Of a stretch of DNA of 29,108 bases, positions 626 to 29,108 are shown in pieces (position 1 is the stretch's first letter; each line of letters begins with the position of its first letter). Source of the DNA: Candidatus Limnocylindrales bacterium. Its GTDB lineage: Bacteria > Chloroflexota > Limnocylindria > Limnocylindrales > CSP1-4. A program made the translations under genes and the position numbers. Under the pieces are notes generated by a model. It ran no database searches. It worked only from the letters and a program-made list of their open reading frames with translations, and was not told the DNA's origin. The DNA is taken from the NCBI GenBank assembly GCA_044449605.1, contig JBIOIE010000001.1, forward strand, positions 1-29,108. Direction: 5' to 3'.

Positions 626-2079
626 TCCCCGGCCAGCTGGCCATCCACGGCCACTTCTACCAGCCCGCCCGCGAGGACCCCTTCAGCGGCGCGGTGCCGC
701 CCGACCCGACGGCCGCCCCCCACCCGGACTGGAACGGCCGCATCGCGGCCGAGTGCTACGGGCCGAACGCCGCCGCCGGCAATTTCGGCCGCATCAGCTT
801 CGACCTGGGGCCCACGCTGGCCACCTGGCTGCGCCGCGAACGGCCCGAGACGCACGACGCGATCGTGGCCCAGGCAGCCCACGGCAACGTCCTGGCCCAG
901 GCCTTCCACCACACGATCCTGCCGCTGGCCACCCCGCGCGATCGGCGGACGGAGATCCGCTGGGGCCTGCGCGATGCCGAGCTGCGCTTCGGCCGGCGTC
1001 CGACCGGCCTCTGGCTGCCCGAGACGGCGGTGGATCTGCTGACCCTGCGCATCGCCGCCGAGGAGGGCGTGACCTGGACGATCCTGGCCCCCTGGCAGGC
1101 GGCCGCCACGAAGATCGAGACGCGTCGGCCGTACCGGGTCGAGGTCGGGGGTGGGCGCCACATCGTCGTCCTCTTCTACGACGGCTCCCTCTCGGCCGCT
1201 GTCAGCTTCGAGGCCGCCGCCACCAGCGATGCCCGGGAGTTCGCCGCCGGCTGGGTCGGCCCGCGGCTGGCCGCGCCCGTCGCCGAGGGCCTCAAGCCCC
1301 TCGTCCTGGTCGCCACCGACGGGGAGCTGTACGGCCACCACCTGCCCTTCCGCGAACTGTTCCTCGAGGCCCTGACTGAAGCGCCGGCCGCCGAGCGCGG
1401 CTTCGCCTTCGCCCGGCCCGGCCGACTGCCCGGCGGCGCGTCCGTCCGGGCCCTGCCCGCGATGGCCATCCGCGACCAGACGAGCTGGTCGTGCCACCAC
1501 GGCGTCCTGCGCTGGAGCGGCGCCTGCGCGGACGCCCGCGATGGCCGCTGGAAGCAGCCGCTGAGAGCCGCCTTCGACCGCCTGGCCGCGGCCGTCGACG
1601 CCGTCTCTGAACGGGAGACGGCGTCGCTCGGCATCGACGCCTGGGCCGCTCGCGACGCCTGGGTGGACGTCGCCGGCGAGCACGCCGGCGCGACGGAGGT
1701 GCTGACCCGCATCATCACCGACGCGCGGGGCCCCGCGGCCGCGGTCGCGGCGACCGATCCTGCGGCGGCCAGGCGGCTGGAGACCGTCATGCAGGCGCAG
1801 CGCTCCCGCCTGGCCATGTTCGCCTCGGACGGCTGGTTCTGGGAGGACCCGGCCGGGGTCGAGACGGCCCAGGCGCTCCGTCTCGCGGCTCATGCCGCCC
1901 GCACCATCGACGGACTGGCCTGTACGCGCCTCGAGGCCGCCCTCGTCGCCGACCTCGGGCCGGTCCGCTCGCCGGCCACCGGTCAGGATGGCCCGGCGCT
2001 CTACACGGCTGCCCTCGAGGCGGTCGGTCAGCAGCCGATCGGGCTGGCCTCGCCGGCCGGGACCGGGGGCCGCGCCTAG
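622..2079 (+). CDS. DUF3536-type glycoside hydrolase family 57 protein
   Basis: GTG at 622 overlaps the upstream TGA (GTGA). Motifs: IHGHFYQPAREDP, WNGRIAAECY, ISFDLGPTL, QAFHHTILPLA, GLWLPETAVD (nucleophile Glu), ATDGELYGHH (acid/base Asp), WSCHHGVLRW, MFASDGWFWED. Confidence 0.85.
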   Translation: MIPGQLAIHGHFYQPAREDPFSGAVPPDPTAAPHPDWNGRIAAECYGPNAAAGNFGRISFDLGPTLATWLRRERPETHDAIVAQAAHGNVLAQAFHHTILPLATPRDRRTEIRWGLRDAELRFGRRPTGLWLPETAVDLLTLRIAAEEGVTWTILAPWQAAATKIETRRPYRVEVGGGRHIVVLFYDGSLSAAVSFEAAATSDAREFAAGWVGPRLAAPVAEGLKPLVLVATDGELYGHHLPFRELFLEALTEAPAAERGFAFARPGRLPGGASVRALPAMAIRDQTSWSCHHGVLRWSGACADARDGRWKQPLRAAFDRLAAAVDAVSERETASLGIDAWAARDAWVDVAGEHAGATEVLTRIITDARGPAAAVAATDPAAARRLETVMQAQRSRLAMFASDGWFWEDPAGVETAQALRLAAHAARTIDGLACTRLEAALVADLGPVRSPATGQDGPALYTAALEAVGQQPIGLASPAGTGGRA

Positions 2080-2933
2080 GCCAGACCGATCAGCCGTCGC
2101 CGCCGCAGGGCGAGGCGATAGTCGAGGCCCTCGTAGAGCGCCAGCGCCGGGTCGTTGGCCGGATCCACGGCGAGCCAGACGAGCGACGCGCCGAGGGCCA
2201 GCCCCGCCCGGGTGACGATCGTGGTCAGGTAGCGGCCGATCCCCTGGCGCCGCCGGCCATCGACGACGCCCAGGCCGTGGATCACCCCCAGGCCGCCCTC
2301 CGTGAGCAGGCGCGCCGTGGCCACGGCCTCGCCGCCGACGCGCACGAGATAGGCGCGCACGAGGCCCGCCGCCAGGCCCCGGCGCAGGGCCGCCCGCCGG
2401 TCGTCCCGCTCGCTCGGCAGCACCCCGAAGATGGCCCGCTCCACGCTCTCGTACTCGTCCGCCCCGCGGGCCGTGACCGCCTCGAGCCGAAGCTCGAGGT
2501 CGAGATGCGGCACCGCTCTGGCGCGGCGTGTCCAGAGCAGCAGCTCGCCGCCCACCTCCGCCCAGCCCGCGCCGGCCAGAAGCAAGGCCAGATCGGGCGG
2601 CTCGGTGAGCCCCTCCAGGACGTCGACGACCGGAAGCTCGGCCAGCGCCCGGAGACGGGCGGCCACCCGCTCCGAGCGCTCCGGCCACTCGGCCATCGAC
2701 CAGCGCACGCGGGTCACGTGGTTGAAGGCCGGACCCCGACCCCGCCAGGTCAGGAGCGTCGCTCCGAGCGCCGGGTCCTCGGCCCGGGTCGCGCCGGCCA
2801 GCTCGACGAGGCGGATCGCGCCCTCCTCGATGCCGGCCAGTTCGGCCGCGTCGGGCGCGGCCGGCACCTCGGCCGCGGCATCTCGGCGAGGGCGAGCGGT
2901 GACGGGGCGGACGATGCGCGGCGGCTCGCTCAC
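2076..2933 (-). CDS. GNAT family N-acetyltransferase
   Basis: GTG start overlaps the stop of the ADH gene. C-terminal GNAT motif A (LGVVDGRRRQGIGRYLT) and motif B (WLAVDPANDPALALYEGLDY). Confidence 0.8.
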   Translation of the reverse strand: MSEPPRIVRPVTARPRRDAAAEVPAAPDAAELAGIEEGAIRLVELAGATRAEDPALGATLLTWRGRGPAFNHVTRVRWSMAEWPERSERVAARLRALAELPVVDVLEGLTEPPDLALLLAGAGWAEVGGELLLWTRRARAVPHLDLELRLEAVTARGADEYESVERAIFGVLPSERDDRRAALRRGLAAGLVRAYLVRVGGEAVATARLLTEGGLGVIHGLGVVDGRRRQGIGRYLTTIVTRAGLALGASLVWLAVDPANDPALALYEGLDYRLALRRRRLIGLA

Positions 2934-4072
2934 GGGTAGAGGATGACCCGGCGGGCCCCATCGCCGCGGCGCATCGCGTCGAGGGCCGCCTCGAGGTCGT
3001 CGAGCCCGATGCGCTCGCTGATGAGCCGCTCGACCGGCAGACGGCCTTCGAGGTGCAGCCGGGCCAGGCGCGGGAAGGCGACGGCGGGGATGGACGAGCC
3101 GTAGTTCGAGCCCAGCAGCCGGCGGCCCTCCTCCACGAAGCGATAGACGTCGAGTCCGGCGCGCTGGCCTTGCGCGGTCATGCCGACAAGGGTCGTCGTG
3201 CCGCCCGGGCGGGTCAGGGCGATGGCCAGCTCGACCGTCGTGGGCAGGCCGATGCACTCGAACGCATGGTCCGCGCCGTCGCCGAGGCCCGCCCTCGCGA
3301 GCGCGTCTCGCGCCGCGGCCAACGAACCGGCGGGATCCGCCGGCAGGGCCGCGACCCCGAGCGTGGCGCCGAGCGACGCGGCGAGGGCCAGCTTCTCCGG
3401 CCGCGCGTCGAGGACGACGATCGGGGCGGCCTCCGCGAGCACGGCCCCCAGCAGCGCCGAGAGGCCGACCCCGCCCAGGCCGACGATGACGACCGACTCG
3501 CCGGCCCCGACCCGGGCGGTCTCGAGGACGGCTCCGACCCCCGTCGTCACGGCGCAGCCGATCAGCGCCGCGACCTCGAGGGGGGTGCGCGGATCGACGG
3601 GGATGGCAGCCTCGGCGGCGACGACCTGGGCCGAGCCGAAGGTGCCGATGCCGCTGTACGTGCCCAGCGCTGAGCCGTCGGCGCGGTGGACGCGCACAAG
3701 GTCCGGGCGCAAGCGGTGGCCGCTGCCGATCGGGTTCGAGCACTGCCAGTCCTGGCCCCGAGCGCAGGCCGGGCACGTTCCGCAGGGCGCCGTCCAGGCG
3801 AGGACGACGAGGGCACCCGGCCGGAGCCCCGGGAAGCGCTCGGCGACGCCCTCGCCGACGGCCTCCACGACGGCGGCACCCTCGTGGCCGAGGACCACGC
3901 CGGCCGGCCGGGCCCAGTCGCCGTCGACGACGTGGAGGTCCGAGTGACAGACGCCGCTGGCAGCCATGCGCACGGCAACCTCGCCGGGGCCCGGCGGGTC
4001 GAGGACGAGCGTCTCGATGCGCAGGGGCTGCCCCGGCCCCACGAAGACGGCGCCGCGCAGCTCGCGGCCCAC
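2930..4072 (-). CDS. Zn-dependent medium-chain alcohol dehydrogenase (class III/aryl-alcohol DH-like)
   Basis: GVCHSDLH and GHEGA catalytic Zn motifs, CGTCPAC...QC structural Zn motif, GCAVTTG, Rossmann GLGGVG. GTG start at 4072 chosen, 5 nt after the DUF885 stop. Confidence 0.9.
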   Translation of the reverse strand: MGRELRGAVFVGPGQPLRIETLVLDPPGPGEVAVRMAASGVCHSDLHVVDGDWARPAGVVLGHEGAAVVEAVGEGVAERFPGLRPGALVVLAWTAPCGTCPACARGQDWQCSNPIGSGHRLRPDLVRVHRADGSALGTYSGIGTFGSAQVVAAEAAIPVDPRTPLEVAALIGCAVTTGVGAVLETARVGAGESVVIVGLGGVGLSALLGAVLAEAAPIVVLDARPEKLALAASLGATLGVAALPADPAGSLAAARDALARAGLGDGADHAFECIGLPTTVELAIALTRPGGTTTLVGMTAQGQRAGLDVYRFVEEGRRLLGSNYGSSIPAVAFPRLARLHLEGRLPVERLISERIGLDDLEAALDAMRRGDGARRVILYP

Positions 4073-9754: not shown

Positions 9755-10189
9755 ATGCTTCGTGATCGCGTCCTGGCCGCACTGGCCCCCACCCGCACCG
9801 TCCACGCCCACTGCGACATCCCCTGCGGCATCTACGACCCGCACGGCGCCGAGATCGCCGCGAAGACGGTCGCCAAGATGGTCGCCCTCATCACCGAGAC
9901 CGGCGCCGGCGGCGACCTCGCAGCGCAGAACAAGCTCATCCGCTGCGTCAAGGTCAAGGAGGAGCACGCCGAGCTGTGCAAGCACGAGCTGCAGGTGCTC
10001 TGGAGCGACTACTTCAAGCCCGAGCACCTCGAGAAGTACCCGGACCTCCACGACCGTTTCTGGAAGGCCCTCAAGCAGGCCGGCAAGTGCAAGCAGTCCG
10101 TCGACGCCGCCGCAGCCGCGGAACTCGAGGCCCAGGTCGGCGCGATCGCCGACATCTTCTGGGCGACCAAGGGCGGCCGCCCCTCCTGA
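9755..10189 (+). CDS. sodN: Nickel superoxide dismutase precursor
   Basis: Nickel-hook HCDIPCGIYDP after an 18-aa leader; also VKVKEEHAELCKHEL and LWSDYFKPEH. GAGGTG RBS upstream. Confidence 0.97.
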   Translation: MLRDRVLAALAPTRTVHAHCDIPCGIYDPHGAEIAAKTVAKMVALITETGAGGDLAAQNKLIRCVKVKEEHAELCKHELQVLWSDYFKPEHLEKYPDLHDRFWKALKQAGKCKQSVDAAAAAELEAQVGAIADIFWATKGGRPS

Positions 10190-10602
10190 GCGCCTTCGGA
10201 GCCGGCCTGCGGACCGGTCTCCTGCTGGGCGGCATCGGCCTCGCGCTGGTACCCGGCGGGCGACGTCTCGCGCGATCCTGGCGAGCCCGCGTGGCCGTGA
10301 CCGGCACGAGCATGCGCCCGACCCTCGAGCCCGGCGACTGGCTGCTGGTCGACCCGGATGCCTACCGGCACCGGCCGCCCCGGCCGGGCGAACTCGTCGT
10401 CGCCCCCGACCCGCGCCGGGCCGAGCGCCTGCTCGTGAAACGCGTGGCCGCCCTCGACATCGACGGCCGGGTGCTCATCGCCGGAGATGCCCGCGACGCG
10501 TCCACCGACTCGCGCACCTTCGGGGCCATCGACCCGGCCACGCTGGCGGGACGGGCCTGGTTCCGGATCTGGCCCCGGGAACGCTTCGGGGCCCTGCACT
10601 GA
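10186..10602 (+). CDS. sodX: Nickel-type SOD maturation protease (S26 family); start codon uncertain (CTG 10186 or GTG 10291)
   Basis: VTGTSMRPTLEPGDWLLV (catalytic Ser), LLVKRV (catalytic Lys), GDARDASTDSRTFG. Lies directly downstream of sodN. Confidence 0.9.
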   Translation: MSAFGAGLRTGLLLGGIGLALVPGGRRLARSWRARVAVTGTSMRPTLEPGDWLLVDPDAYRHRPPRPGELVVAPDPRRAERLLVKRVAALDIDGRVLIAGDARDASTDSRTFGAIDPATLAGRAWFRIWPRERFGALH

Positions 10603-10608
10603 GCCGGA

Positions 10609-11577
10609 CTAGAGGCCGGCCCCGCCCGGGAGCACGCGCTCACCCAGCAGCCGGATCATGGCCAGGTCGCGGGGCACGAAGTCCTGCAGGGCGATGCGCT
10701 CCACGCCGACCTTGGCGAACTCGGCGATGCGCTCGAGGGCCTGTTCGGGCGTGCCCATGATCCAGCGCTCTCTGCGCGCGGCCAACCAGGCCTCGGCCTC
10801 CGGCGCGGCCAGGCCCAGCGCCGCCAGCAGGGCGGCCACACGGTCGCGCACGTCGCCCTCGGATGCGCCGACGAGCACGCCGACCATGGCCGAGAAGACG
10901 ATGCTGGCCGGATCGCGGCCCGCGGCGACACAGGCCGCTCGGAGCTCGGCCAGCGCCGCGCTGGCGACCTCGGTGCGGGCGGACTCGAGGTTGTACTCGT
11001 CGGCGAAGCGGGCCGCCAGGCGGAGCCCGCGCGGCTTGCCCTCGCCGCCCACGATGAGATGGGGATGACGGCGGCCCTCGCTCGTCGGACGCGGCCCGAA
11101 GCGGGCCTCGTGGACCTGCCAGTAGCGGCCCTCGAAGGACCAGCCGTCGGGTTCGGTCCACAGCCCGTGGACGATCGTCAGAGCCTCCTCGAGGCGGTCC
11201 ATCCGTTCGCCCAGCGGCGGGAAAGGGATGCCCAGGCGCTCGTGCTCGGGCGCGTTCCAGCCGGCGCCCATGCCGACCTCGACGCGCCCGCCGCTCATCT
11301 CGTCGACGGTGGCCACGACCTTGGCAAAGGACCCCGGCATGCGGAACGTGACCGGCGAGACGAGGGTGCCGAGGCGCAGGTGGGTCGTCTCGCGGGCGAC
11401 CCCGGCGAGCACCGCCCAGGCGTCCGTTGTGTGCAGCCCCGAGCCGCCCGGGAAACTCGCGTAGTGATCGGAGCGCAGGAGGGCCTCGAAGCCGGCCTCC
11501 TCGGCCGTTCGGGCGACGGCCAGCTGCTCGACATAGGTCAGGCCTTGCTGGGGCTCGATCATCAGCGCGAAGCGCAT
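10609..11577 (-). CDS. LLM-class, probably F420-dependent oxidoreductase (Rv1855c-like)
   Basis: MRFALMIEPQQG start, RSDHY, TDAWAVLAGVARET, LGTLVSPVTFR, MSGGRVEVGMGAGW, LIVGGEGKPRGLRLAARFADEYN. Confidence 0.88.
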   Translation of the reverse strand: MRFALMIEPQQGLTYVEQLAVARTAEEAGFEALLRSDHYASFPGGSGLHTTDAWAVLAGVARETTHLRLGTLVSPVTFRMPGSFAKVVATVDEMSGGRVEVGMGAGWNAPEHERLGIPFPPLGERMDRLEEALTIVHGLWTEPDGWSFEGRYWQVHEARFGPRPTSEGRRHPHLIVGGEGKPRGLRLAARFADEYNLESARTEVASAALAELRAACVAAGRDPASIVFSAMVGVLVGASEGDVRDRVAALLAALGLAAPEAEAWLAARRERWIMGTPEQALERIAEFAKVGVERIALQDFVPRDLAMIRLLGERVLPGGAGL

Positions 11578-19238: not shown

Positions 19239-19508
19239 ATGGCCCTCGCCCGGACGAATCTGACCCTGCCCATCGAACTGATCCGCGAGGTCGACGAGTT
19301 GGCCGGTCCGCGCGGCCGGTCCGCATACGTCGCGGAAGCCGTGCGACTCCGCCTCAAGCGCGATCACCTTCGGCGAACGCTCGATGAGACGTACGGCGCG
19401 GCGAGGGGCAAGTCCGCCTGGCGGGACGCCGACGAAGCGTACCGGTGGCTGCGTTCGCTGCGCGAGGACTCCTCACGCGACGATCGGCTCGGGGGCCTCG
19501 ATCAGTGA
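19239..19508 (+). CDS. Ribbon-helix-helix (CopG/VapB-like) antitoxin
   Basis: 89 aa; RTNLTLPIELIREVDELAGPRGRSAYVAEAVR is an RHH pattern. Strong RBS; stop overlaps the GTG of the PIN gene. Confidence 0.8.
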   Translation: MALARTNLTLPIELIREVDELAGPRGRSAYVAEAVRLRLKRDHLRRTLDETYGAARGKSAWRDADEAYRWLRSLREDSSRDDRLGGLDQ

Positions 19509-19897
19509 GCTACCTCTTCGACACAACGGTCGTGATCGACTGGTCGCTGGCCCGGCCAGGGATCCAGGCCGTCGTCGAGGCATGCATGGCCGAGACGGAC
19601 CTCCTCTACACGTGCGACGTGGTGACCTCTGAAGCGCTCTCAGGTGGCAGTGACGCTGAGCGCGTGATCGTGAAGCACTTCCTCGATGCCCTCGAATTCG
19701 TGGCCCTCGATCCCGACGGTGCAGCGGAGGCGGGTGAGCTTCGGCGCCGGGCCGGACGTACGAGTGGTCGCAGCTTGGGCCACGTCCTCATCGCGGCGCT
19801 CGCCTTACGCCTCGGGGCGACGATCGTCACCCGGAACGAGGCCGACTACACAGGTCTCGGCGTAGCCGTGCTGAGCTACGGGGCTTCAGCCACCTAG
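19505..19897 (+). CDS. PIN-domain (VapC-like) toxin
   Basis: YLFDTTVVID, VTSEAL, LIAALA...TIVTRNEADY; 130 aa, coupled to an RHH gene. Confidence 0.85.
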   Translation: MSYLFDTTVVIDWSLARPGIQAVVEACMAETDLLYTCDVVTSEALSGGSDAERVIVKHFLDALEFVALDPDGAAEAGELRRRAGRTSGRSLGHVLIAALALRLGATIVTRNEADYTGLGVAVLSYGASAT

Positions 19898-20482
19898 ATC
19901 CTCCGGCCGATCGATGTCGCGGCGCCAGGCGCCGACCGGATCGACCGGCCGCCATGCGGCCTCGGGCACGATCACCGGATCGAGCCCGAGGATGACCCCA
20001 AGCAGCGAGCGGTCGTGCGAGCCCAGCGCCGTCCGCGCCGCGGCGAGCGCCGGCGAGCGGCGCAGCGCTGTGGGCAGCGAACGCGGCTCCTCCCCGTCGG
20101 CGAGCACGGCCGCGGAAGCGGTCCCCAGGGCCGAAACCAGCAGCATCAGGAGGGCCGGCCGGAGATCCGGCTGATCGCCGCCGGCGACGAGGACGAGCGG
20201 CGTTTCGGCCGCCTCCAGCCCGGCCAGGAGGCCGGCCACGGGTCCCGCGTCGGGAACCGCATCGCGGACCACCCGCACGGGCACGCCGGCGTCCCAGGGC
20301 AGCGGGGGCTCGGCGCCGGTGGCGGATACGGCGACGATGATGCGGTCGCAGCAGGCCGCGAGGGCCAGGATCGGGTGCTGGAGGAGCGGCCGGCCACGCA
20401 CCTCGGCCGCCAGCTTGTCGCTCCCGAAGCGCTGCGAGCGTCCGCCCGCCAGCACGATGCCGGTGACCCGCGGCTCGTTCAC
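19886..20482 (-). CDS. mobA: Molybdenum cofactor guanylyltransferase
   Basis: GIVLAGGRSQRFGSDKLA, DAVPDAGPVAGLLAGL, LVAGGDQP, DIDRPEDL. Last gene of the FDH operon. Confidence 0.9.
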   Translation of the reverse strand: MNEPRVTGIVLAGGRSQRFGSDKLAAEVRGRPLLQHPILALAACCDRIIVAVSATGAEPPLPWDAGVPVRVVRDAVPDAGPVAGLLAGLEAAETPLVLVAGGDQPDLRPALLMLLVSALGTASAAVLADGEEPRSLPTALRRSPALAAARTALGSHDRSLLGVILGLDPVIVPEAAWRPVDPVGAWRRDIDRPEDLGG

Positions 20483-21468
20483 TCGGGCGCGGGGCGCTCC
20501 TGGACGTACTGCCAGCCGAAGCGTCCCTTGATACAGAGGTGGCCGTTCGTGACCTGCTGGTCGAGCGGCGAGGTGACCTTCACGATGTCGTTGTCCTGGA
20601 CGTGCAGGGTCAGCGTGCAACCGACGCCGCAGTAGGGGCAGATCGTGTCGGTCTGCGACTGGGCCGCCTCAGCCCACGTGCCGGCCGCGCGCATCTCATG
20701 CTCGCTCCGGAACATCAGCGCCCCGGTCGGGCAGACGCCGATGCAGTTGCCGCAGTAGACGCAGGCGGAGTCGGGCAGGCCGACGTTCCACTCGGTCGAG
20801 ATGCGGGCATCGAAACCGCGCCCGGCGACGCCGATGGCGAACGTGTTCTGGGCGTCGACGCCGCAGGCCTCGACGCACTTGTAGCAGAGGATGCACTTGG
20901 CGTAGTCGCGCACGTAGAGCTGGTTGTCGACCTTGACCGGTTGGGCCACCCGGGCCGAAACGGTCCCGTCGGCGGCGATGTGCTCACCGGGCCGGTGTGT
21001 GTCCCGCTCCCCCGCCTGGGCCGGCTCTGCCGGCGGCCCGAATCGGCCGGGGTCGGCGCCGTAGCGCTCCATGTAGGCGGCGACGTCGGGCGCGGTCGAG
21101 AGGTCGACCGACGAACCCAGCAGCTCGAGCACGAGCTTGCGGCTGGTGCGCACCCGGTCGGAGTCGGTCTTGACCTTCATGCCCGCCTCGACCTTGCGCG
21201 AGCAGGCCGGTGCGAGCACCCGGGCGCCCTCGAGCTCGACCACGCAGACGCGGCAGACGTTGACCGGGGTCAGGTTCTCGAGGAAGCAGAGGGTGGGCGT
21301 CTCGATGCCCTCGGCCCGGCAGGCCTCGAGGATCGTCGAGCCCGCCGGCGCCGTGACGGGCTTGCCGTCGATCTCCAGGTCCACCTCGGGCACGGCCGGG
21401 CGCTCGGGAGCGACGGGGATGTGCGTCGACGGCGGCGCCGGCCGGAACCAGATGGGATCCGCGGTCAT
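20479..21468 (-). CDS. FDH alpha N-terminal Fe-S module as a separate protein ([2Fe-2S], 2x[4Fe-4S], Molybdop_Fe4S4)
   Basis: PTLC...CRVCVV...PAC (2Fe-2S); CILCYKCVEAC and CVYCGNCIGVCPTGAL; TICPYCGVGC...HLCIKGRFG. Confidence 0.9.
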   Translation of the reverse strand: MTADPIWFRPAPPSTHIPVAPERPAVPEVDLEIDGKPVTAPAGSTILEACRAEGIETPTLCFLENLTPVNVCRVCVVELEGARVLAPACSRKVEAGMKVKTDSDRVRTSRKLVLELLGSSVDLSTAPDVAAYMERYGADPGRFGPPAEPAQAGERDTHRPGEHIAADGTVSARVAQPVKVDNQLYVRDYAKCILCYKCVEACGVDAQNTFAIGVAGRGFDARISTEWNVGLPDSACVYCGNCIGVCPTGALMFRSEHEMRAAGTWAEAAQSQTDTICPYCGVGCTLTLHVQDNDIVKVTSPLDQQVTNGHLCIKGRFGWQYVQERPAPE

Positions 21469-23297
21469 GCCAGTCCTCCGTGGAGCGCCGAGCCGATAGC
21501 CGCAGCCGCGGTCTGGCCGAGACCGCAGATCGAGGCGTCGCGCATGGCCTGGGCGATCTCGTCGAAGAGGCGCAGCTCGGCCTCCCGCGAGCCGCGCGGC
21601 CGCCCGTCGGCGAGGCGGGCGAGAAGCTCCTCCTGGCGCACGGTGCCGACCCGACAGGGCACGCACTGGCCGCACGACTCGTCGCGGAAGAAGGCCGCGA
21701 TGCGGCGCAGGATGGCGCGCAGGTCGATGGTCTCGTCGAAGACCATGATCACGCCGGAGCCGAGGCTGGCTCCGGCGGCCCTGGTGCCCTCGAAGGTCAG
21801 GGGCATCGCCAGCTGGCCGTCGCCGACGAACGTGCCGGCCGCGCCGCCGAGGAGGATGGCCTGCAGCGTCCGGCCCCCGGCGACGCCACCGGCCATTTGG
21901 AGCAGCTCGCCGAGGGTCGCCCCGAAGGGCACCTCGTAGAGCCCGGGCCTGGCGACGTTGCCGGAGAGGCAGAAGAGCTTCGGGCCGGTCGAGGCTTCGG
22001 TGCCGATCCGCGCGAAAGCCTCGCCGCCGCCGATGACGATGTGGGGCACGTTGGCCAGCGTCTCGATGTTGTTGACGACGGTCGGCTTGCCGAAGAGCCC
22101 GGCCTGCACGGGGAAGGGCGGCTTGTTGCGCGGCTCGCCGCGCCTGCCCTCGATCGAGTTGAAGAGGGCCGTCTCCTCGCCGCAGATGTAGGCGCCGGCG
22201 CCGCGCCGCAGCTCGATGTCGAAGGCCATCCCCTTGCCCATGACATCCGGGCCGAGGAGGCCGGCGGCTCGCGCCGCTTCGATCGCGTTGGCCAGCCGCT
22301 CCCCGGCGAGGGGGTACTCGCCGCGCAGGTAGAGATAGCCGCGCTCGCAGCCCGCGCTGATGCCGGCGATCGTCATCGCCTCGACGATCGTGAAGGGGTC
22401 CTCCTCCATGAGCACCCGGTCCTTGAACGTGCCCGGCTCGGACTCGTCGGCGTTGCAGACGAGGTAGTGCGGGCTGCCCGGGGCGTTGGCCACCGCCTCC
22501 CACTTGCGCCCGGCCGGGAAGGCGGCCCCGCCCCGGCCGACCAGCTTCGAGGCGTTCATTTCGCGGATGACGCCCTGCGGTCCCAGCTCGAAGGCCTTGG
22601 CCAGCGCGTCGTACCCGCCGCTCGCCTGATAGGCATCGAGGCTCGTCGGATCGACCCGGCCGACGCGGGCCAGGAGGCGCAGCCCGGGCTCGCCGGCCTG
22701 GGGCACGATGCGGCGCAGGTCGGCGGTCGCGGTGGCAGGCGCCCGGTCGTGGGCCGCCTCCTCCAGCGCCCCCCGGATCGCAGCGGCATCGGCGGGGGCC
22801 ACGAGGCCCTCGGCCGGCCGCTCCCCGGCGATGGTGACCATGGCCGCCGGGGCCCGCTCGCAGAGGCCGAGGCAGGGGCTGCGCAGCCACGTCGGGGCAG
22901 CATCGGCTCCCGCTCCAGCAGGGCCAGCGGTCCGCTCCAGGTCCGCGCACAGCCGGTCCGCCCCGTTGGCCAGGCAGGCGATGTCGTCGCAGACGTGGAC
23001 GACCGCCCGAGGTCGCGGCGCCAGCGAGAAGAGGGCGTAGAAGCTGGCCACGCCGTAGGCCTCGGCGGGCGGCACGGTCAGCCGCCGGCAGATCTCGTTG
23101 AGTGCCGGCTGGCTGATCCAGCCGACGCGCGATTGGACGGCATGGAGGGCGGGCAGGAGGAGGTGGCGCCGGTCCCTCGCGGCATGGCCGCCGCGCGCGG
23201 CATGGGGTCCATCGCCGGCCGCGCGCGGGCCGACGACCGACTCGATGGCGGCGCGCTCCGCGGGGCTGGGCAGCGGGCCGACGACGTGGAGGTCCAT
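21465..23297 (-). CDS. Fused NuoE/NuoF-like (FDH gamma-beta) diaphorase subunit
   Basis: NuoE part: LLPALHAVQ, VASFY, CDDIAC, CLGLC. NuoF part: GRGGAAFP, NADESEPGTFKDR, GAGAYICGEETAL, ESCGQCVPCR, SICGLG. Confidence 0.92.
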   Translation of the reverse strand: MDLHVVGPLPSPAERAAIESVVGPRAAGDGPHAARGGHAARDRRHLLLPALHAVQSRVGWISQPALNEICRRLTVPPAEAYGVASFYALFSLAPRPRAVVHVCDDIACLANGADRLCADLERTAGPAGAGADAAPTWLRSPCLGLCERAPAAMVTIAGERPAEGLVAPADAAAIRGALEEAAHDRAPATATADLRRIVPQAGEPGLRLLARVGRVDPTSLDAYQASGGYDALAKAFELGPQGVIREMNASKLVGRGGAAFPAGRKWEAVANAPGSPHYLVCNADESEPGTFKDRVLMEEDPFTIVEAMTIAGISAGCERGYLYLRGEYPLAGERLANAIEAARAAGLLGPDVMGKGMAFDIELRRGAGAYICGEETALFNSIEGRRGEPRNKPPFPVQAGLFGKPTVVNNIETLANVPHIVIGGGEAFARIGTEASTGPKLFCLSGNVARPGLYEVPFGATLGELLQMAGGVAGGRTLQAILLGGAAGTFVGDGQLAMPLTFEGTRAAGASLGSGVIMVFDETIDLRAILRRIAAFFRDESCGQCVPCRVGTVRQEELLARLADGRPRGSREAELRLFDEIAQAMRDASICGLGQTAAAAIGSALHGGLA

Positions 23298-25213
23298 CAG
23301 GCGACCGGGGCGGCGAGCTTCTCGACGCGCACGGCCGCGGCCTTGAACTCGGCCGTGCCCGAGCGGGGGTCGGTGGCGTTGATCGTCAGCAGGTTCGTGG
23401 CCACGTCGTCCGGGAAGTGGAGGGTCATGAAGGCCAGCCCCGGCCGCAGTTCGGGATCGACCCGCGCCTCGACCTCGACCTCGCCGCGTCGGGAGCGGAC
23501 ACGCACCCGCTCGCCCTGGGCGAGCCCCAGGCCGGCCATGTCCTCGGGCGACAGCTCGACGGCCTCGCCCCGGCGCAGAGGCGAGGTATAGCCGCCGGTC
23601 TGGACGCCCGTATTGAACGAATCGAGCCGCCGCCCCGTGGTCAGACGGATCGGATACTCGTCGTCGAGCGCGTCGACGGGCGGCTCCTGGTCGACCAGGC
23701 TGAAGGGTGCCCGGGGGCCGACGACGGGGTCTTCCCACAGCCGGCTGTGCAGGAACAGTTCGCCCGGGTGCTGCTCGTCGTAGCACGGCCACTGGATGCC
23801 GCCCAGGGCCTCGAGCCGGGCGTAGCTCATGCCCCGATGGACGGGCGAGAGCGAGCGGACCTCGTTCCAGACCTCCTCGGCCGTCGGGTGGCCCCAGTCG
23901 TGGCCCATCCGCCGGGCCAGCTCGACGACGATGTCGAGGTCGTCGCGGGCCTGGCCGGGCAGCTCCAGGGCCTTGTGGACGCGCTGCACGCGCCGCTCCG
24001 AGGAGGTGACCGTGCCCTCGCTCTCGGCCCACATGGCGCTGGCCGGGAAGACGACGTCGGCGATCTGGGCGGTCTTGGTCAGGAACATGTCCTGGACCAC
24101 GAGGAGGTCGAGGCCCTCGAGGAGGTGGCGCGCCTCGTTCTGATCCGCCTCGGACTGGACGGGGTTCTCGCCGACGACGTAGAGCGCGGTCAGCTCGCCG
24201 CGATCCATGGCCTCGAACATGCCCGACAGGTGCCAGCCGCGCCTGGGCGGAACTTTCGCGCCCCAGGCCGCATCGAACTTCGCGCGCAGCTCGTCGTTCT
24301 CGACGTGCTGGAAGCCAGGCAGCCGGTCGGGCAGGGCGCCCATGTCGCCGCCGCCCTGGACGTTGTTCTGGCCGCGCAAGGGGTTGAGGCCGCTGCCGTA
24401 CTTGCCGACGTGGCCGGTGAGTAGGGCGAGGTTGATGAGGGCGACGACGTTGTCGACGGCGTTGTGGTGCTCGGTGATGCCCAGCGTCCAGCAGATCATG
24501 GCCCGGTCGGCCTGGGCGTAGGCGCGGGCGACCTCGGCGATCAGGGCACCGGGGACGCCGGTCTCGCGCTCGGCGTACTCGAGCGTGAAGGGCTCGACGT
24601 GGGCCTTGAAGGCCTCGAAGTCGGTCGTGGCCCGCTCGATGAACTCGCGATGCTCCAGCCCCGCGGCGATGATCTCGCGGGCCATCGCGTTGGCCAGGGC
24701 GATGTCGGAGCCGACGTCCAGGCCGAGCCAGGCATCGGCCCACTGCGCGGAGGTCGTCCGGCGCGGGTCGACGGCGTAGAGGCGCGCCCCGCGATTGACG
24801 CCCTTGAGCAGGTGGTGGAAGAAGATCGGGTGGGTCTCACGGGCATTGGAGCCCCAGAGGAGGACGAGATCCGTCTCCTCGATCTCCTGGTATGAGTTGG
24901 TGCCGCCCCCGGCCCCGAAGATGGTCGCCAGACCGACGACGCTCGGGGCGTGTCAGGTCCGGTTACAGCTGTCGATGTTGTTGCTGCCGATGACCGTCCG
25001 GGCGAACTTCTGGGTCATGAAGTTCAGCTCGTTGGTCGCCTTCGAGCAGCTGAACAGCCCGAAGGTCGTCGGACCGTGGGCATCGACCGCCTTGCGGAAC
25101 CCGTCGGCGGCCCGGTCGAGGGCCTCGTCCCAGGTGGCGGGACGGAGGACGCCGGTGTGCCGGTCGCCGTCACGGACGAGGGGCTGGGTGAGCCGGACGT
25201 ACGGTTTCGCCAT
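23297..25213 (-). CDS. Selenocysteine-containing formate dehydrogenase catalytic (Mo/W-bisPGD) subunit; Sec at UGA 24955-24953
   Basis: ORFs 24953..25213 and 23297..24685 join in frame across one TGA, giving NNIDSCNRT-U-HAPSV (FdhF-type Sec-His). Also LRGQNNVQGGGDMG (active-site Arg), LTTGRR and AEFKAAAVRV. AAGGAG RBS; SECIS and the Sec machinery are adjacent. Confidence 0.95.
24912..24949 (-). promoter_or_regulatory. Bacterial SECIS element
   Basis: 3' of the UGA: lower stem GCCCCGAG/UUCGGGGC (+4..+11/+34..+41), upper stem GUCGUC/GGCGAC (+13..+18/+24..+29), apical loop GGUCU, resembling the E. coli fdhF SECIS loop. Confidence 0.88.
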
Positions 25214-25269: not shown

Positions 25270-26133
25270 CTAGTCGGCGCCGATCCGCTGGCCGCCGGTG
25301 TAGACGTTGAAGCGGTCGCCACGGAGGAAGCCGACGAGGGTCAGGCCGAAGGTGTGGGCGACGTGGATGGCCAGGCTCGACGGCGCCGAGACCGCGGCCA
25401 GGAGTGGGACGCCGGCGGCCACGGCCTTCTGGGCCAGCTCGAACGAGGTCCGGCCGCTGACCATCACGGCCCGGTCGTGGAGCGGCAGCTCCCCAGCGAG
25501 CATGGCTGCGCCGACCAGCTTGTCGACGGCGTTATGGCGCCCGACGTCCTCGCGCAGGCGGACGAGGACGCCGTCCGGCGTGAAGAGCCCCGCCGCATGG
25601 AGGCCACCGGTCAGCTCGAAGGTCGCCTGGGCCTCGCGCAGCGTCTGCGGGAACGCGGTGAGGGTGCGCCAGGAGAAGGTGGGCCCGGCGGGGAGCGGGT
25701 CGAGGTCGACGCGCAGGGCGTCGAGGGCGGCCGCGCCGCAGATCCCGCACGCGGACGCCGCGACGAGGTTGCGCTGCCAGCCGACCGGCTCGGCGTCAGG
25801 ACGGGGCCGGGCGAGGCGCAGGTCGACGAGGTTCTCGGCCTCGGCGATCGCGCTCAAGGGGAGGTCGATCGTCCCCTCCGGGATGCCCGAGGCGGCGAGG
25901 GCCGCACCGGCCAGGTCGTCGAGGCCCAAGATGAGGCCCTCCGCGAAGAGCAGGCCGAGGACCAACTCGAGGTCGTGGCCCGGTGTGCGCATGACGACGG
26001 CGAAGGGCTCGCCGTCGAGGACGATCTGGAGGGGTTCCTCGGCGGCAACGACATCGTCGGCCGGCTCGTGCGCTCCCGCTGACCAGCGTTCGATGTGGGC
26101 GGGCCGATCCGGCCCGGGGCCGCGGTCGGTCAT
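25270..26133 (-). CDS. fdhD: Formate dehydrogenase accessory sulfurtransferase
   Basis: VAAEEPLQI, VMRTPGHDLELVLGLLFAEG, SACGICG, FELTGGLHAAGLF, REDVGRHNAVDKLVG, VSGRTSFELAQKA, AVSAPSSLA. Confidence 0.95.
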   Translation of the reverse strand: MTDRGPGPDRPAHIERWSAGAHEPADDVVAAEEPLQIVLDGEPFAVVMRTPGHDLELVLGLLFAEGLILGLDDLAGAALAASGIPEGTIDLPLSAIAEAENLVDLRLARPRPDAEPVGWQRNLVAASACGICGAAALDALRVDLDPLPAGPTFSWRTLTAFPQTLREAQATFELTGGLHAAGLFTPDGVLVRLREDVGRHNAVDKLVGAAMLAGELPLHDRAVMVSGRTSFELAQKAVAAGVPLLAAVSAPSSLAIHVAHTFGLTLVGFLRGDRFNVYTGGQRIGAD

Positions 26134-26141
26134 GGGCAGGC

Positions 26142-27215
26142 TCAGGCGGTGAGCCGGACGCCCTCGCCCGACTCCACGCGCCCGATCCGCCGGGCGCCGA
26201 TGCCCGCGGCGCTGAGGCCGGCCAGGACGCCGGCCACGTGCTCGTCCGATACCGCGGCGAGCAGACCGCCCGAGGTCTGCGGGTCGAAGGCGAGGACCAC
26301 GCGGGCGGGCTCGACGTCCGCGTCGAGCGCGAGGGTGGGGGCGGCAAAGCGCCGGTTGTGGGCGGCGCCATCCGTCTCGACCCCGGCGGCTGCAAGCTCG
26401 AGCGCACCATCCAGTGCGGGGAGGGACCCTGCCTCGATGACGAAGCGGGTGCCGGACGCTCGAGCCATCTCGGTCGCATGGCCGAGCAGGCCGAAGCCGG
26501 TGACGTCGGTCGCGGCACGGACGCCCGCTTCGACGAGCACCTCCGAGGCCGCCCGGTTGAGCGACCGCATCGAGGCGATCGCCCCTTCGAGGTCGGTCGG
26601 TGCGGTGCGGCCCTGGCGGCGGCCGCTGACGAGCAGACCGGTGCCGAGGGGCTTGGTGAGCAGGAGCGTTTCGCCCGGTCGGGCTCCGCCCTTGCGCAGG
26701 ATCCGGTCCGGCCGCACTGCCCCGATGACCGCGAGGCCGTACTTCGGCTCCGGGTCGCGGATGGTGTGGCCGCCGGCGAGCACGCCACCCGCTTCGCGCA
26801 CGGTGGCCTGGGCGCCTCGGAAGATGGCCGCCATCGCCTCGCGCGGCAGGTCCTCGGGAAAGGCGGCGATGCTCAGCGCGAAGAGGACCCGGCCGCCCAT
26901 CGCGAACACGTCGCTGACGGCGTTCGCGGCGGCGATCGCCCCATATGTCTCGGGGTCGTCGACGAGCGGGGGGAAGAAGTCGAGCGTGCCAACGATGGCG
27001 AGATCGTCCGACACGCGGTAGACGGCGGCGTCGTCCGGGGCATCGAGCCCGACCAGGAGGGCCTCCGGCGAGGCGTCCGCGCCGAGGCCCGCGAGCGCCT
27101 CGGCCAGGAGGTCCGCACCGAGCTTGGCGGCGCAACCGCCGCACGAGGTCAGGCTGGTCAGGGCGGTCGACGGGCGAAGGGTCGGCGGCGGCGCGGAGGG
27201 GACGCGGGCCGGCAT
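26142..27215 (-). CDS. selD: Selenide, water dikinase (Cys form)
   Basis: LTSCGGCAAKLG, DDAAVY, TLDFFPPLVDDP, AAANAVSDVFAMGG, GGHTI, ATDVTGFGLLGH, DPQTSGGLL. Confidence 0.96.
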   Translation of the reverse strand: MPARVPSAPPPTLRPSTALTSLTSCGGCAAKLGADLLAEALAGLGADASPEALLVGLDAPDDAAVYRVSDDLAIVGTLDFFPPLVDDPETYGAIAAANAVSDVFAMGGRVLFALSIAAFPEDLPREAMAAIFRGAQATVREAGGVLAGGHTIRDPEPKYGLAVIGAVRPDRILRKGGARPGETLLLTKPLGTGLLVSGRRQGRTAPTDLEGAIASMRSLNRAASEVLVEAGVRAATDVTGFGLLGHATEMARASGTRFVIEAGSLPALDGALELAAAGVETDGAAHNRRFAAPTLALDADVEPARVVLAFDPQTSGGLLAAVSDEHVAGVLAGLSAAGIGARRIGRVESGEGVRLTA

Positions 27216-27256: not shown

Positions 27257-27354
27257 GGGAGCGGAGGGGTTCCGGTGGGCTCCCCGGTCTTCAAAACCGG
27301 TGGCGCCGCGCTTCGACGTGGCACGGTGGGTTCGACTCCCATGCGCTCCCGCCA
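27257..27354 (+). tRNA. selC: tRNA-Sec (anticodon UCA)
   Basis: Acceptor GGGAGCG/CGCUCCC; 6-bp D stem GGGUUC/GGGCUC with CGGU loop; anticodon stem CCGGU/ACCGG with loop CU-UCA-AA (TCA 27291-27293); long variable arm; T arm GUGGG-UUCGACU-CCCAU; ends in encoded GCCA. Lies between selD and selA. Confidence 0.97.
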
Positions 27355-27371: not shown

Positions 27372-28745
27372 ATGACCCGACCCGAATCCGACCGACCGCC
27401 CAGCCGACCACCCAGCGTCGAGCGGCTCCTCGCCACCGCGGCCCCCCGCCTCGGCGAACGGGAGCACGCCGCCGTGCTTGCCGCCGCGCGCGAGGTCGTC
27501 GCGGAGGAGCGGCTGGACACCCGGGCCGGGGCGGCCCCGCGGACCGTCGCCGACCTCGCCGACGCGCTGGTCGAGCGCCTTGGGGCGCTTGCCGACGGGG
27601 GCCTCGTGCCGGCCATCAACGCGACCGGCGTCATCCTGCACACGAATCTCGGCCGCGCGCCCTGGTCCGAGGCGGCCATCCGGGCCGCCGGCCAGGCCGC
27701 GGCCGGCGCCTCGCTCCTGGAGATGGATGGGGCAACCGGCCGGCGTGGTGCGCGCTTCCGGGCGGCGGAGGACCACCTCGTGGCCCTCACCGGCGCCGGG
27801 GATGCCCTGGTCGTCAACAACAACGCCGCGGCGGTGGCCCTGGCCGTGGGCCTCGCCGGCCGCGGTCGGGGGGTGGCCATCGCCCGCGGGGAGCTGGTCG
27901 AGATCGGCGGGGGTGTCCGTATCCCCGAGATCATCCGTCGGGCCGGCCTGCGCCTCGTCGAGGTCGGCACCACGAACCGGACGCGGCTGGCCGACTATCG
28001 CGAGGTGGCGGCGGCTGGCCAGGCGGCCCTGATCCTGCGCGTCCACGCCTCGAATTTTCGGATGGAAGGGTACGTCGAGAGCCCGGACGCGGGCGAGCTG
28101 GCCGCCCTCGCCCACGAGTTCGGCCTTCCGCTCGTCGACGACCTGGGCAGCGGTGCGCTGCTCGACACGGCGGTCTTCGGCCTGGCCCATGAGCCGACCC
28201 CGGCCGAGGTCCTGGCCGCCGGCGCGGACCTGGTGACCTTCAGCGGCGACAAGCTCGTCGGCGGGCCGCAGGCCGGCCTCATCACCGGGCGGGCCGATCT
28301 CATCGCCCGTTTGCGCCGTGACCCGCTGGTCCGCGCGATGCGGGCTGACAAGGTCACGCTCGCCGCACTTGCGGCGACGCTGGCGCTCTACCGTGCCGGC
28401 CGGGCGCTCGCCGAGATCCCGGTGTGGCGGATCATCGCCGCGCCACCGGAAGGGCTCGAGGCGCGTGCCCGGGCACTGGCGAGCGACCGTCCGGAAGCGC
28501 GCGTGGTGCCACTCCTGGCCACCGTCGGGGGCGGTTCGCTGCCGGGCGAGACGCTGCCCTCCTGGGGCCTCTCCCTCGCCGCGCGGTCGGCGGAGCGCCT
28601 TCTCGCCCGCCTGCGAAGCGGCCGGCCCGCCGTCGTCGGCCGGATCGGCGCTGGCGCCGTGCTGCTCGACCTGCGCACCGTGGCCCCGGCGGACGACGCC
28701 CTGCTTGCCGCCGCGCTGGCGACCGCCCTCGCCGCCGAGCCGTGA
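27372..28745 (+). CDS. selA: L-seryl-tRNA(Sec) selenium transferase
   Basis: [61 protein letters not shown] (PLP Lys). GGAGG RBS. Confidence 0.97.
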
Positions 28746-29108
28746 CCGTCGTCGTCGGTACGGCCGGCCACGTCGACCACGGCAAGACCGCCCTCCTCCA
28801 GGCGCTGACCGGCATCGACGCCGACCGCCTGCCCGAAGAGCGCCGGCGGGGCATGACCGTCGACCTCGGCTACGCCCACATGACCCTGGCCAGCGGGAGC
28901 GTGCTGGACTTCGTCGACGTCCCGGGCCACGACCGGCTGGTCGGCAACATGCTTGTCGGCGCGGGCGAGATCGATGCCGCCCTGCTCGTCGTGGCCGCCG
29001 ATGAGGGCATCGGCGCCCAGACCCGCGAGCATCTCGGCCTGCTCGACGCCCTCGGCATCGAAGACGGCCTGATCGCCCTGACCAAGCTCGACCTCCTCGC
29101 CCCGGACG
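28742..29108 (+). CDS. selB: Selenocysteine-specific elongation factor (3'-truncated by window edge)
   Basis: [64 protein letters not shown] overlaps the selA stop. Confidence 0.96.

Follow-up and report, generated by a model that had tools for sequence, protein, structure and literature searches.

A predicted cytoplasmic selenocysteine formate dehydrogenase of a Limnocylindrales bacterium with its proximal iron-sulfur domain encoded on a separate subunit

The stretch of DNA analysed here (the window) comprises 29,108 nt of a Candidatus Limnocylindrales bacterium (assembly GCA_044449605.1, contig JBIOIE010000001.1, positions 1 to 29,108) and carries a formate dehydrogenase (FDH) operon in which the alpha chain of the enzyme is divided between two genes, fdhA and fdhC, separated by fdhB. 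The contig has a G+C content of about 73% and belongs to a 1.7-Mb, 61%-complete metagenome-assembled genome (MAG) of 295 contigs. Judged from domains, motifs and gene order, the operon probably encodes a cytoplasmic heterotrimeric (or higher-order) metal-dependent FDH of the NAD-linked FdsABG/FDH1 kind, with the layout of FDH3 of Actinomycetospora chiangmaiensis. A soluble, three-subunit, NAD-linked selenocysteine (Sec) enzyme had been proposed in the initial annotation; it remains the best reading, with the NAD linkage as its predicted part.

In other formate dehydrogenases the proximal [4Fe-4S] domain, here called FS0, forms the N-terminus of the catalytic chain. In the window it forms the C-terminus of FdhC (P0005), which ends in ...NGHLCIKGRFGWQYVQERPAPE-stop, and it is encoded 1.8 kb downstream of the gene for FdhA (P0003), which starts with MAKPYVRLTQPLVR...ATWDEAL. 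The initial annotation had proposed that the chain is cut after FS0 and that the two halves are contiguous with FdsA. Alignments with three unsplit references, all end to end, bear this out. Positions 1-51 of TIGR01591 correspond to residues 275-325 of FdhC and positions 53-672 to residues 7-630 of FdhA. Residues 17-304 of Rhodobacter capsulatus FdsA (6tg9_A) correspond to FdhC 20-323, and residues 308-933 to FdhA 7-632. Finally, a fused database relative of 901 aa (P0273) matches FdhC over residues 10-279 and FdhA over residues 283-896. Between the halves, no more than three residues of the unsplit chain thus lack a counterpart. The new ends are short: FdhC closes with the tail QERPAPE, and FdhA opens with the tail MAKPYV. 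The score of FdhA against TIGR01591 is 639.8 bits for a cut-off of 666.25; the shortfall fits the absence of profile positions 1-52, and FdhC supplies 53.5 bits. FS0 is present as a single copy (20482-20676), with no second such domain in the window. The reverse order of the halves, with a NuoE-NuoF fusion between them, had likewise been noted at the outset; it agrees with the gene limits and is common to the related loci.

FdhA consists of the Molybdopterin and Molydop_binding domains and nothing further. Its only cysteines are C56, C83, C241 and C477, beside the UGA-encoded residue 87, and a cluster motif is absent. The catalytic selenoprotein therefore cannot bind an Fe-S cluster, in agreement with the initial annotation. 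The metal-ligand motif CNRT-U-HAPS contains the pair Sec87-His88, and the FDH-typical Arg280 lies within RGQNNVQG. This Sec-His and Arg signature is kept in 56 of the 57 orthologues read. FdhA has no twin-arginine (Tat) signal, and the enzyme is therefore expected to be cytoplasmic.

Decoding of the in-frame UGA as Sec is well supported, because the codon is followed by a covarying selenocysteine insertion sequence (SECIS) and selC, selA, selB and selD are adjacent. All 57 related loci with a readable site have TGA at the position of the Mo ligand. The SECIS stem is 6 bp long (GUCGUC/GGCGAC), begins 13 nt past the UGA and closes a GGUCU loop. Over 36 distinct sequences, pairing is maintained in 99.5% of the cells, compared to 15-83% for slid controls. 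Compensatory changes are found at two pairs (C:G to G:C and C:G to U:A), and wobble positions are conserved within the hairpin while the adjoining codons vary freely. Folding of the region as a single sequence was not significant (z = -0.44), and an Rfam search of the window returned tRNA-Sec as its sole match, with no SECIS. Ordinary open reading frame (ORF) calling cuts fdhA at the UGA into pieces of 86 aa (24953-25213) and 462 aa (23297-24685). Public gene sets hold equally cut calls of 85-87 aa, and selenoproteins of the FdhA type are thus systematically mis-called.

FdhC is the Fe-S subunit. It contains the ligands of a [2Fe-2S] cluster (C61/72/75/89), of two ferredoxin-type [4Fe-4S] clusters (C192-202 and C236-246) and of the FS0 [4Fe-4S] cluster (C277/280/284/312), the last being followed by I313-K314-G315. 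The conserved Lys next to the proximal cluster, which had been predicted to reside on another polypeptide than the catalytic centre, is accordingly K314 of FdhC, within the sequence C-I-K-G. The His-ligated cluster of the NuoG-N5 type is missing: its H-x3-C-x2-C-x5-C site is replaced by a Cys-free stretch (window 21070-21130, residues ~113-133). Fused relatives retain this site (P0273, SEHQTDCLTCDSSSEC; P0394, GTHDCLTCEATGRC).

In FdhB, NuoE- and NuoF-like parts are both present with intact motifs and are fused in a single chain. The NuoE part carries the [2Fe-2S] ligands C103/C108/C142/C146, and the NuoF part the flavin mononucleotide (FMN) motif GRGGAAFPAGRK, the NADH motif GAGAYICGEE and the [4Fe-4S] ligands C542/C545/C548/C591. 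No C-terminal 2x[4Fe-4S] ferredoxin/Fer4 domain follows the NADH_4Fe-4S domain, with which the chain ends (residue 606 of 610). FdsB aligns to residues 102-605.

We infer from the sequences how the subunits would form a complex, the electron path, the NAD(H) partner and the use of Mo or W. Formate would be oxidised at a Mo- or W-bis-molybdopterin guanine dinucleotide (bis-MGD) centre in FdhA whose metal is bound by Sec87, with His88 and Arg280 in their customary catalytic roles. Electrons would exit through FS0 and its neighbouring Lys, both provided in trans by the last 55 residues of FdhC. K314 would play the role of the cluster-adjacent Lys in FdhF, in a step that crosses the subunit interface. 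The path would then follow the two ferredoxin-type [4Fe-4S] clusters of FdhC, and probably its [2Fe-2S] cluster too, to the NuoF-type [4Fe-4S] cluster and the FMN of FdhB, where NAD+ would be reduced. In Escherichia coli FDH-H (PDB 1AA6), the N-terminal ~60 residues and segments further along the chain fold into one structural domain. The in-trans FS0 should therefore pack intimately against FdhA rather than behave as a loose module.

The three structural genes belong to a minus-strand run of six genes, selD-fdhD-fdhA-fdhB-fdhC-mobA, with only short gaps or overlaps. The ATG of fdhD (26133) lies 8 nt beyond the last base of the selD stop codon (26142), and a strong AAGGAG ribosome-binding site precedes fdhA. 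The fdhA stop and the fdhB start overlap by 1 nt (TGATG), the fdhB stop and the fdhC start by 4 nt (ATGA), and the probable GTG start of mobA overlaps the fdhC stop (GTGA). fdhA, fdhB and fdhC are thus translationally coupled, and their reading frames are intact. On the plus strand, the tRNA-Sec gene, selA and selB diverge from selD. The neighbouring genes therefore cover Sec insertion (selD, tRNA-Sec, selA and selB) as well as the supply of sulfurated bis-MGD (fdhD and mobA).

Table 1. Features of the formate dehydrogenase and selenium region of the window.
Feature	Position	Strand	Product or description	Evidence
selD	26142..27215	-	selenophosphate synthetase, first operon gene	AIRS + AIRS_C domains
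fdhD	25270..26133	-	bis-MGD cofactor sulfurtransferase/maturation factor	PF02634, E 6e-63
fdhA (P0003)	23297..25213	-	638-aa Mo/W-bis-pyranopterin guanine dinucleotide (bisPGD) catalytic selenoprotein	PF00384, PF01568, TIGR01591
in-frame TGA	24953..24955	-	read as Sec at the Mo/W ligand position (residue 87)	
SECIS	24924..24940	-	apical hairpin	comparative pairing
fdhB (P0004)	21465..23297	-	610-aa NuoE-NuoF fusion	domain and motif evidence
fdhC (P0005)	20479..21468	-	329-aa Fe-S subunit	domain and motif evidence
FS0	20500..20652	-	Molybdop_Fe4S4 domain, C-terminus of fdhC	PF04879, residues 273-323; TIGR01591 positions 1-51
mobA	19886..20482	-	molybdenum cofactor guanylyltransferase, probable GTG start	
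tRNA-Sec (selC)	27257..27354	+	tRNA, divergent from the operon	ARAGORN, anticodon tca; Rfam RF01852, 69.9 bits
selA	27411..28721	+	selenocysteine synthase	TIGR00474, 459 bits, above cut-off
selB	28742..29108	+	Sec-specific elongation factor, 5' part only, runs off the contig	GTP_EFTU

A PIN-domain toxin gene (19445-19897, plus strand) and a small upstream ORF, possibly its antitoxin (19384-19632, plus strand), lie just downstream of mobA, at the border of the formate/selenium island. At a related locus (L084), a PhdYeFM/PIN pair adjoins the operon too. The other genes of the window are unrelated and encode GH57, ADH, DUF885 and LysM/SpoIID proteins, a luciferase-like oxidoreductase, a phosphotriesterase, an amidohydrolase and the PIN toxin.

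The distribution of the layout was examined by scanning one genome per species, which yielded at least 551 confirmed stretches encoding an FdhC relative; the layout was compared in the best 80 of these at least 551 loci. Wherever the flank was long enough, fdhA, fdhB and fdhC followed each other in this order on one strand. These 80 loci are assigned to Chloroflexota, Acidobacteriota, Planctomycetota, Actinomycetota, Verrucomicrobiota, Rokuibacteriota, Vulcanimicrobiota and Thermomicrobia, and those with the conserved order show 60-79% identity across at least seven phylum labels. The similar layouts that the initial annotation mentioned for some actinobacterial genomes do exist, Actinobacteria carrying the same operon. 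The host of the window is, however, a Limnocylindria-like member of the Chloroflexota and not an actinobacterium: among the matches listed, the nearest FdhC relatives reach 89% identity and are labelled Candidatus Limnocylindrales/Limnocylindria (Chloroflexota). Of 401 genomes sampled from the host phylum, 32 had the operon, and its distribution is therefore patchy; in the host family it was found in 14 of 23.

In a tree of concatenated FdhB and FdhC, the window falls inside a starred set of 27 rows (20 Chloroflexota, 5 Planctomycetota and 1 Rokuibacteriota). Its nearest rows are all Chloroflexota, and it stands outside a starred 20-row, all-Chloroflexota clade, at an unresolved fork. The rows group mostly by phylum, with 8 label changes for a minimum of 6, and the few cross-phylum placements include a Chloroflexota clade inside Acidobacteriota. 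This mostly phylum-wise grouping rules out recent horizontal spread as the main pattern. The split design is old and occasionally transferred, and no local accident.

With an actinobacterial orthologue as query, the matches were all metagenomic proteins (310-344 aa), and look-ups by name gave no cultured carrier, only proteins of MAGs or without a species name. The top matches of FdhC in a representative library were mostly metagenomic fragments and frameshifted long-read calls; the fused relatives P0273, P0266 and P0139 came from the latter search. Public sequencing runs contained at most 8% of the sampled words in any run, with no RNA run among the listed holders, and say nothing on expression.

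Several related loci differ from the window in detail. fdhA and fdhB are 1-2 kb apart in many Chloroflexota relatives (L006, L008, L010, L015, L021, L047 and others), whereas in the window they overlap without an insert. In L006 a subtilase (Peptidase_S8) gene lies within the gap (2001-3914, minus strand), in opposite orientation. The MAG itself contains a second, diverged island on contig C27 (L085:1-8200), with selA on one strand and selD, fdhA, fdhB and fdhC on the other. Its genes show 63-78% amino-acid identity to those of the window and 81% DNA identity over fdhA, with no fdhD match between selD and fdhA. Either the island is a genuine paralogue of the operon, or its contig stems from a relative that was binned into the MAG. 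At another Chloroflexota locus (L082, ~9900-10900), the split operon lies a few kb from the gene of a further molybdoenzyme, whose motif ENQARI-*-HS contains an in-frame stop and is the signature of a periplasmic FdnG-like Sec-FDH.

The layout may have arisen by fission or by mosaic assembly, as the catalytic and Fe-S pieces score best with different enzymes. FdhA matches best with FDHs of the FdhF/hydrogen-dependent CO2 reductase (HDCR) type and with archaeal FDHs (505-457 bits), Fdh1A and FdsA scoring lower (423-420 bits); the best match of FdhC is FdsA (156 bits). If fission did occur, one may conjecture that an alpha-beta operon was duplicated in tandem and then lost complementary parts, (FeS|Mo)-EF-(FeS|Mo)-EF giving Mo-EF-FeS. 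On a Limnocylindrales contig (L012:10177-12939, minus strand), an unsplit Sec alpha of the FdsA type directly adjoins a split operon and is followed by a NuoF-like gene. This alpha has a contiguous junction between FS0 and the Mo domain (...CLKGRFAYDFPSSPERLTTPLMR...), retains the His-ligated site and shows 45% identity to the window proteins in the catalytic part and 34% in the Fe-S part. Both forms therefore coexist in one lineage, and the contig offers a natural side-by-side comparison of split and unsplit designs in one genome.

Several points weigh against a straightforward NAD-linked Sec-FDH derived from FdsA. There is no purified enzyme of this layout, and NAD+ reduction, stoichiometry and metal remain predicted. 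The Fe-S wire would be one cluster shorter than in the solved enzymes, the His-ligated cluster of FdsA being missing. Rather than by simple fission of an FdsA ancestor, the enzyme may have arisen as a mosaic of parts of different ancestry, since its two pieces have different best matches. The match with FDH3 is one of lengths, gene order and domain description. Moreover, the selenium dependence reported for A. chiangmaiensis could also stem from its membrane-bound FDH1.

Different roles for the same complex have to be weighed too. As NAD-linked Mo/W FDHs are reversible in vitro (the FdsABG enzymes of R. capsulatus and Cupriavidus necator are established examples), Sec enzymes are typically fast both ways, and the domain and alignment data fix no direction, the complex might serve physiologically as an NADH-driven CO2 reductase feeding formate into assimilation, for example through the reductive glycine route. 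We consider this improbable, since genes of C1 assimilation are absent from the window, the carriers are mostly aerobic soil heterotroph lineages, and the A. chiangmaiensis operon is induced when formate arises and needs removal (PMC7176365). Formate oxidation in aerobic or facultative soil bacteria is the most likely physiological direction. The electron acceptor raises a related question. Among the best PDB matches of FdhB are HydB of bifurcating hydrogenases and NfnB/StnB, and the Fe-S subunit also resembles the N-termini of HydA; an electron-bifurcating or confurcating FDH using NADH and ferredoxin, like HylABC-FdhF2 or the HydABC type, could thus be envisaged. However, FdsB and NuoF score nearly as high, FdhB stops after the NuoF [4Fe-4S] domain and lacks the C-terminal 2x[4Fe-4S] module, and NuoE is fused at its N-terminus with no separate HylC/HydC. 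Ferredoxin-coupled bifurcation would also be unusual in hosts that are largely aerobes, and we regard it as quite improbable.

That the substrate is not formate, as in an NADH-fed reductase of nitrate or another oxyanion, is suggested by matches of FdhA to the NasC/NasA and NapA models and by its score slightly under the TIGR01591 cut-off. The shortfall matches the 52 missing profile positions, which FdhC supplies, the Sec-His pair and the Arg of RGQNNVQG are FDH signatures, fdhD is adjacent, and the top PDB matches are FDH structures; there is very little chance that this reading is correct. The host MAG is incomplete and fragmented (61%, 295 contigs), and some related long-read loci contain frameshifts, as would be expected if the split were damage, either an assembly artefact or a gene decaying after rearrangement. 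This is refuted by the conservation data, and its likelihood is close to nil: the frames are intact, the starts are coupled, all motifs are conserved, an identical layout recurs in independent assemblies across many phyla, and the proteins have been detected in a cultured carrier (PMC7176365). Within the preferred reading of an NAD-linked formate oxidase, the placement of FS0 on the wire subunit might be a functional design rather than neutral fission. A cluster-free selenoprotein would mature alone, by Sec insertion and then FdhD-dependent loading of sulfurated bis-MGD through the face later capped by FS0, before docking onto a pre-assembled Fe-S/flavin module. We put this forward as a speculative and rather unlikely proposal; if true, it would provide aerobic soil bacteria with an oxygen-tolerant modular NAD-linked Sec-FDH, through which most cytoplasmic formate oxidation would run in several phyla.

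Among rarely cultured aerobic lineages of soil and fresh water, the design is common. The enzyme may be overlooked when metagenomes are surveyed for formate use, because its catalytic gene is cut at the UGA and its Fe-S piece is vaguely annotated, as only '2Fe-2S iron-sulfur cluster-binding protein' or 'YjgC/HndD' in public records. The first electron-transfer step, from the pterin through Lys to FS0, would have to cross a subunit interface here, with a selenocysteine ligand at the metal. A purified enzyme would reveal how an in-trans FS0 works and could be a fast, possibly oxygen-tolerant CO2/formate catalyst. The operon is chiefly of value in drawing attention to an enzyme class that is abundant, mis-annotated and worth purifying.

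To our knowledge, in all solved or purified NAD-linked metal FDHs the Mo/W centre has a cysteine ligand and shares its chain with the proximal [4Fe-4S] cluster. The FdsGBA(D) enzymes of R. capsulatus and C. necator (PDB 6TG9, 6TGA and 6VW7) are made of the same modules as the window enzyme, namely a NuoE-like [2Fe-2S] part, a NuoF-like FMN/[4Fe-4S] part, a NuoG-like wire and a bis-MGD domain. They have a one-chain alpha, a Cys ligand, separate gamma and beta subunits, a His-ligated [4Fe-4S] cluster, FdsD in the complex and the gene order G-B-A. In the window enzyme, by contrast, the alpha chain is split after FS0, the ligand is Sec, NuoE and NuoF are fused, and the His-ligated cluster is absent. 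FdsD (PF11390) had no match in the 61%-complete genome, in a search where control genomes gave none either, and the operon has no spare ORF. The fused NuoE-NuoF diaphorase is already known from the beta subunit of Methylorubrum extorquens AM1 FDH1 (PDB 7E5Z, 7VW6, 7XQW and 8J83), an enzyme that is also NAD-linked and cytoplasmic. AM1 FDH1 differs in having two subunits, with an unsplit alpha of 989 aa, a Cys ligand and tungsten.

Among solved structures, the highest-scoring relatives of the catalytic piece are of the FdhF type, E. coli FDH-H and the FdhF of Thermoanaerobacter kivui HDCR (7QV7), with 505 and 457 bits respectively. They share with FdhA the Sec-His motif and a SECIS GGUCU loop on the same Gly-Leu codons. 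However, FS0 is on the same chain in these enzymes, with FdhA aligning from residue ~61-63, and they are coupled to hydrogenase modules and not to a NuoEF flavoprotein.

The split layout is absent among the PDB matches of FdhA, FdhB and FdhC, and in our literature searches it was described only by Rohwerder et al. 2020 (Front Microbiol 11:691, PMC7176365), who deduced three Sec-FDH systems in Actinomycetospora chiangmaiensis DSM 45062. Their Suppl. Fig. S4 sets FDH3 (accessions WP_084681743.1, WP_018332443.1 and WP_018332444.1) beside the enzymes of M. extorquens and C. necator. The homology of FdhA3 (640 aa, with Sec) is confined to the metallopterin part at the C-terminus of FdsA/Fdh1A. FdhB3 (614 aa) has NuoE- and NuoF-like domains as in the AM1 beta subunit (35% identity, 93% coverage), and FdhC3 (316 aa) is a separate Fe-S protein in place of the alpha N-terminus. 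A cytoplasmic enzyme that reduces NAD+ was predicted. Each of the three proteins was detected, at 2.2-3.1-fold higher levels on 2-hydroxyisobutyrate, a formate-yielding substrate, and formate accumulated without selenite, tungstate having no effect (PMC7176365). In the searched text of that paper, we found neither enzymology nor any remark on FS0, the Lys, the lost His-ligated cluster or a wide distribution. A 2014 Sulfobacillus paper contains a one-line remark that genes of a cytoplasmic Sec-FDH are syntenic with NuoEFG-like genes. Papers on R. equi, Nitrospira marina and deep-sea Chloroflexi were considered as precedents and set aside, as they concern other FDH types. The initial annotation knew of no biochemical characterisation; this stands in that no enzyme of the type has been purified or solved, but the FDH3 layout is in print with proteomic and selenium-dependence data.

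FDH3 and the window share the A-B-C order and the domain description, with subunits of 640/614/316 and 638/610/329 aa respectively. The host of FDH3 belongs to the Actinomycetota, and that of the window is a Chloroflexota MAG. In addition, the whole set for Sec and cofactor maturation flanks the operon in the window, whereas selA and selB of A. chiangmaiensis sit with its FDH1. The window operon is thus a complete and well-equipped Chloroflexota case of an FDH layout described once in print and never biochemically characterised, and it is distinguished by its in-trans FS0, its invariable selenocysteine and the loss of the His-ligated cluster.

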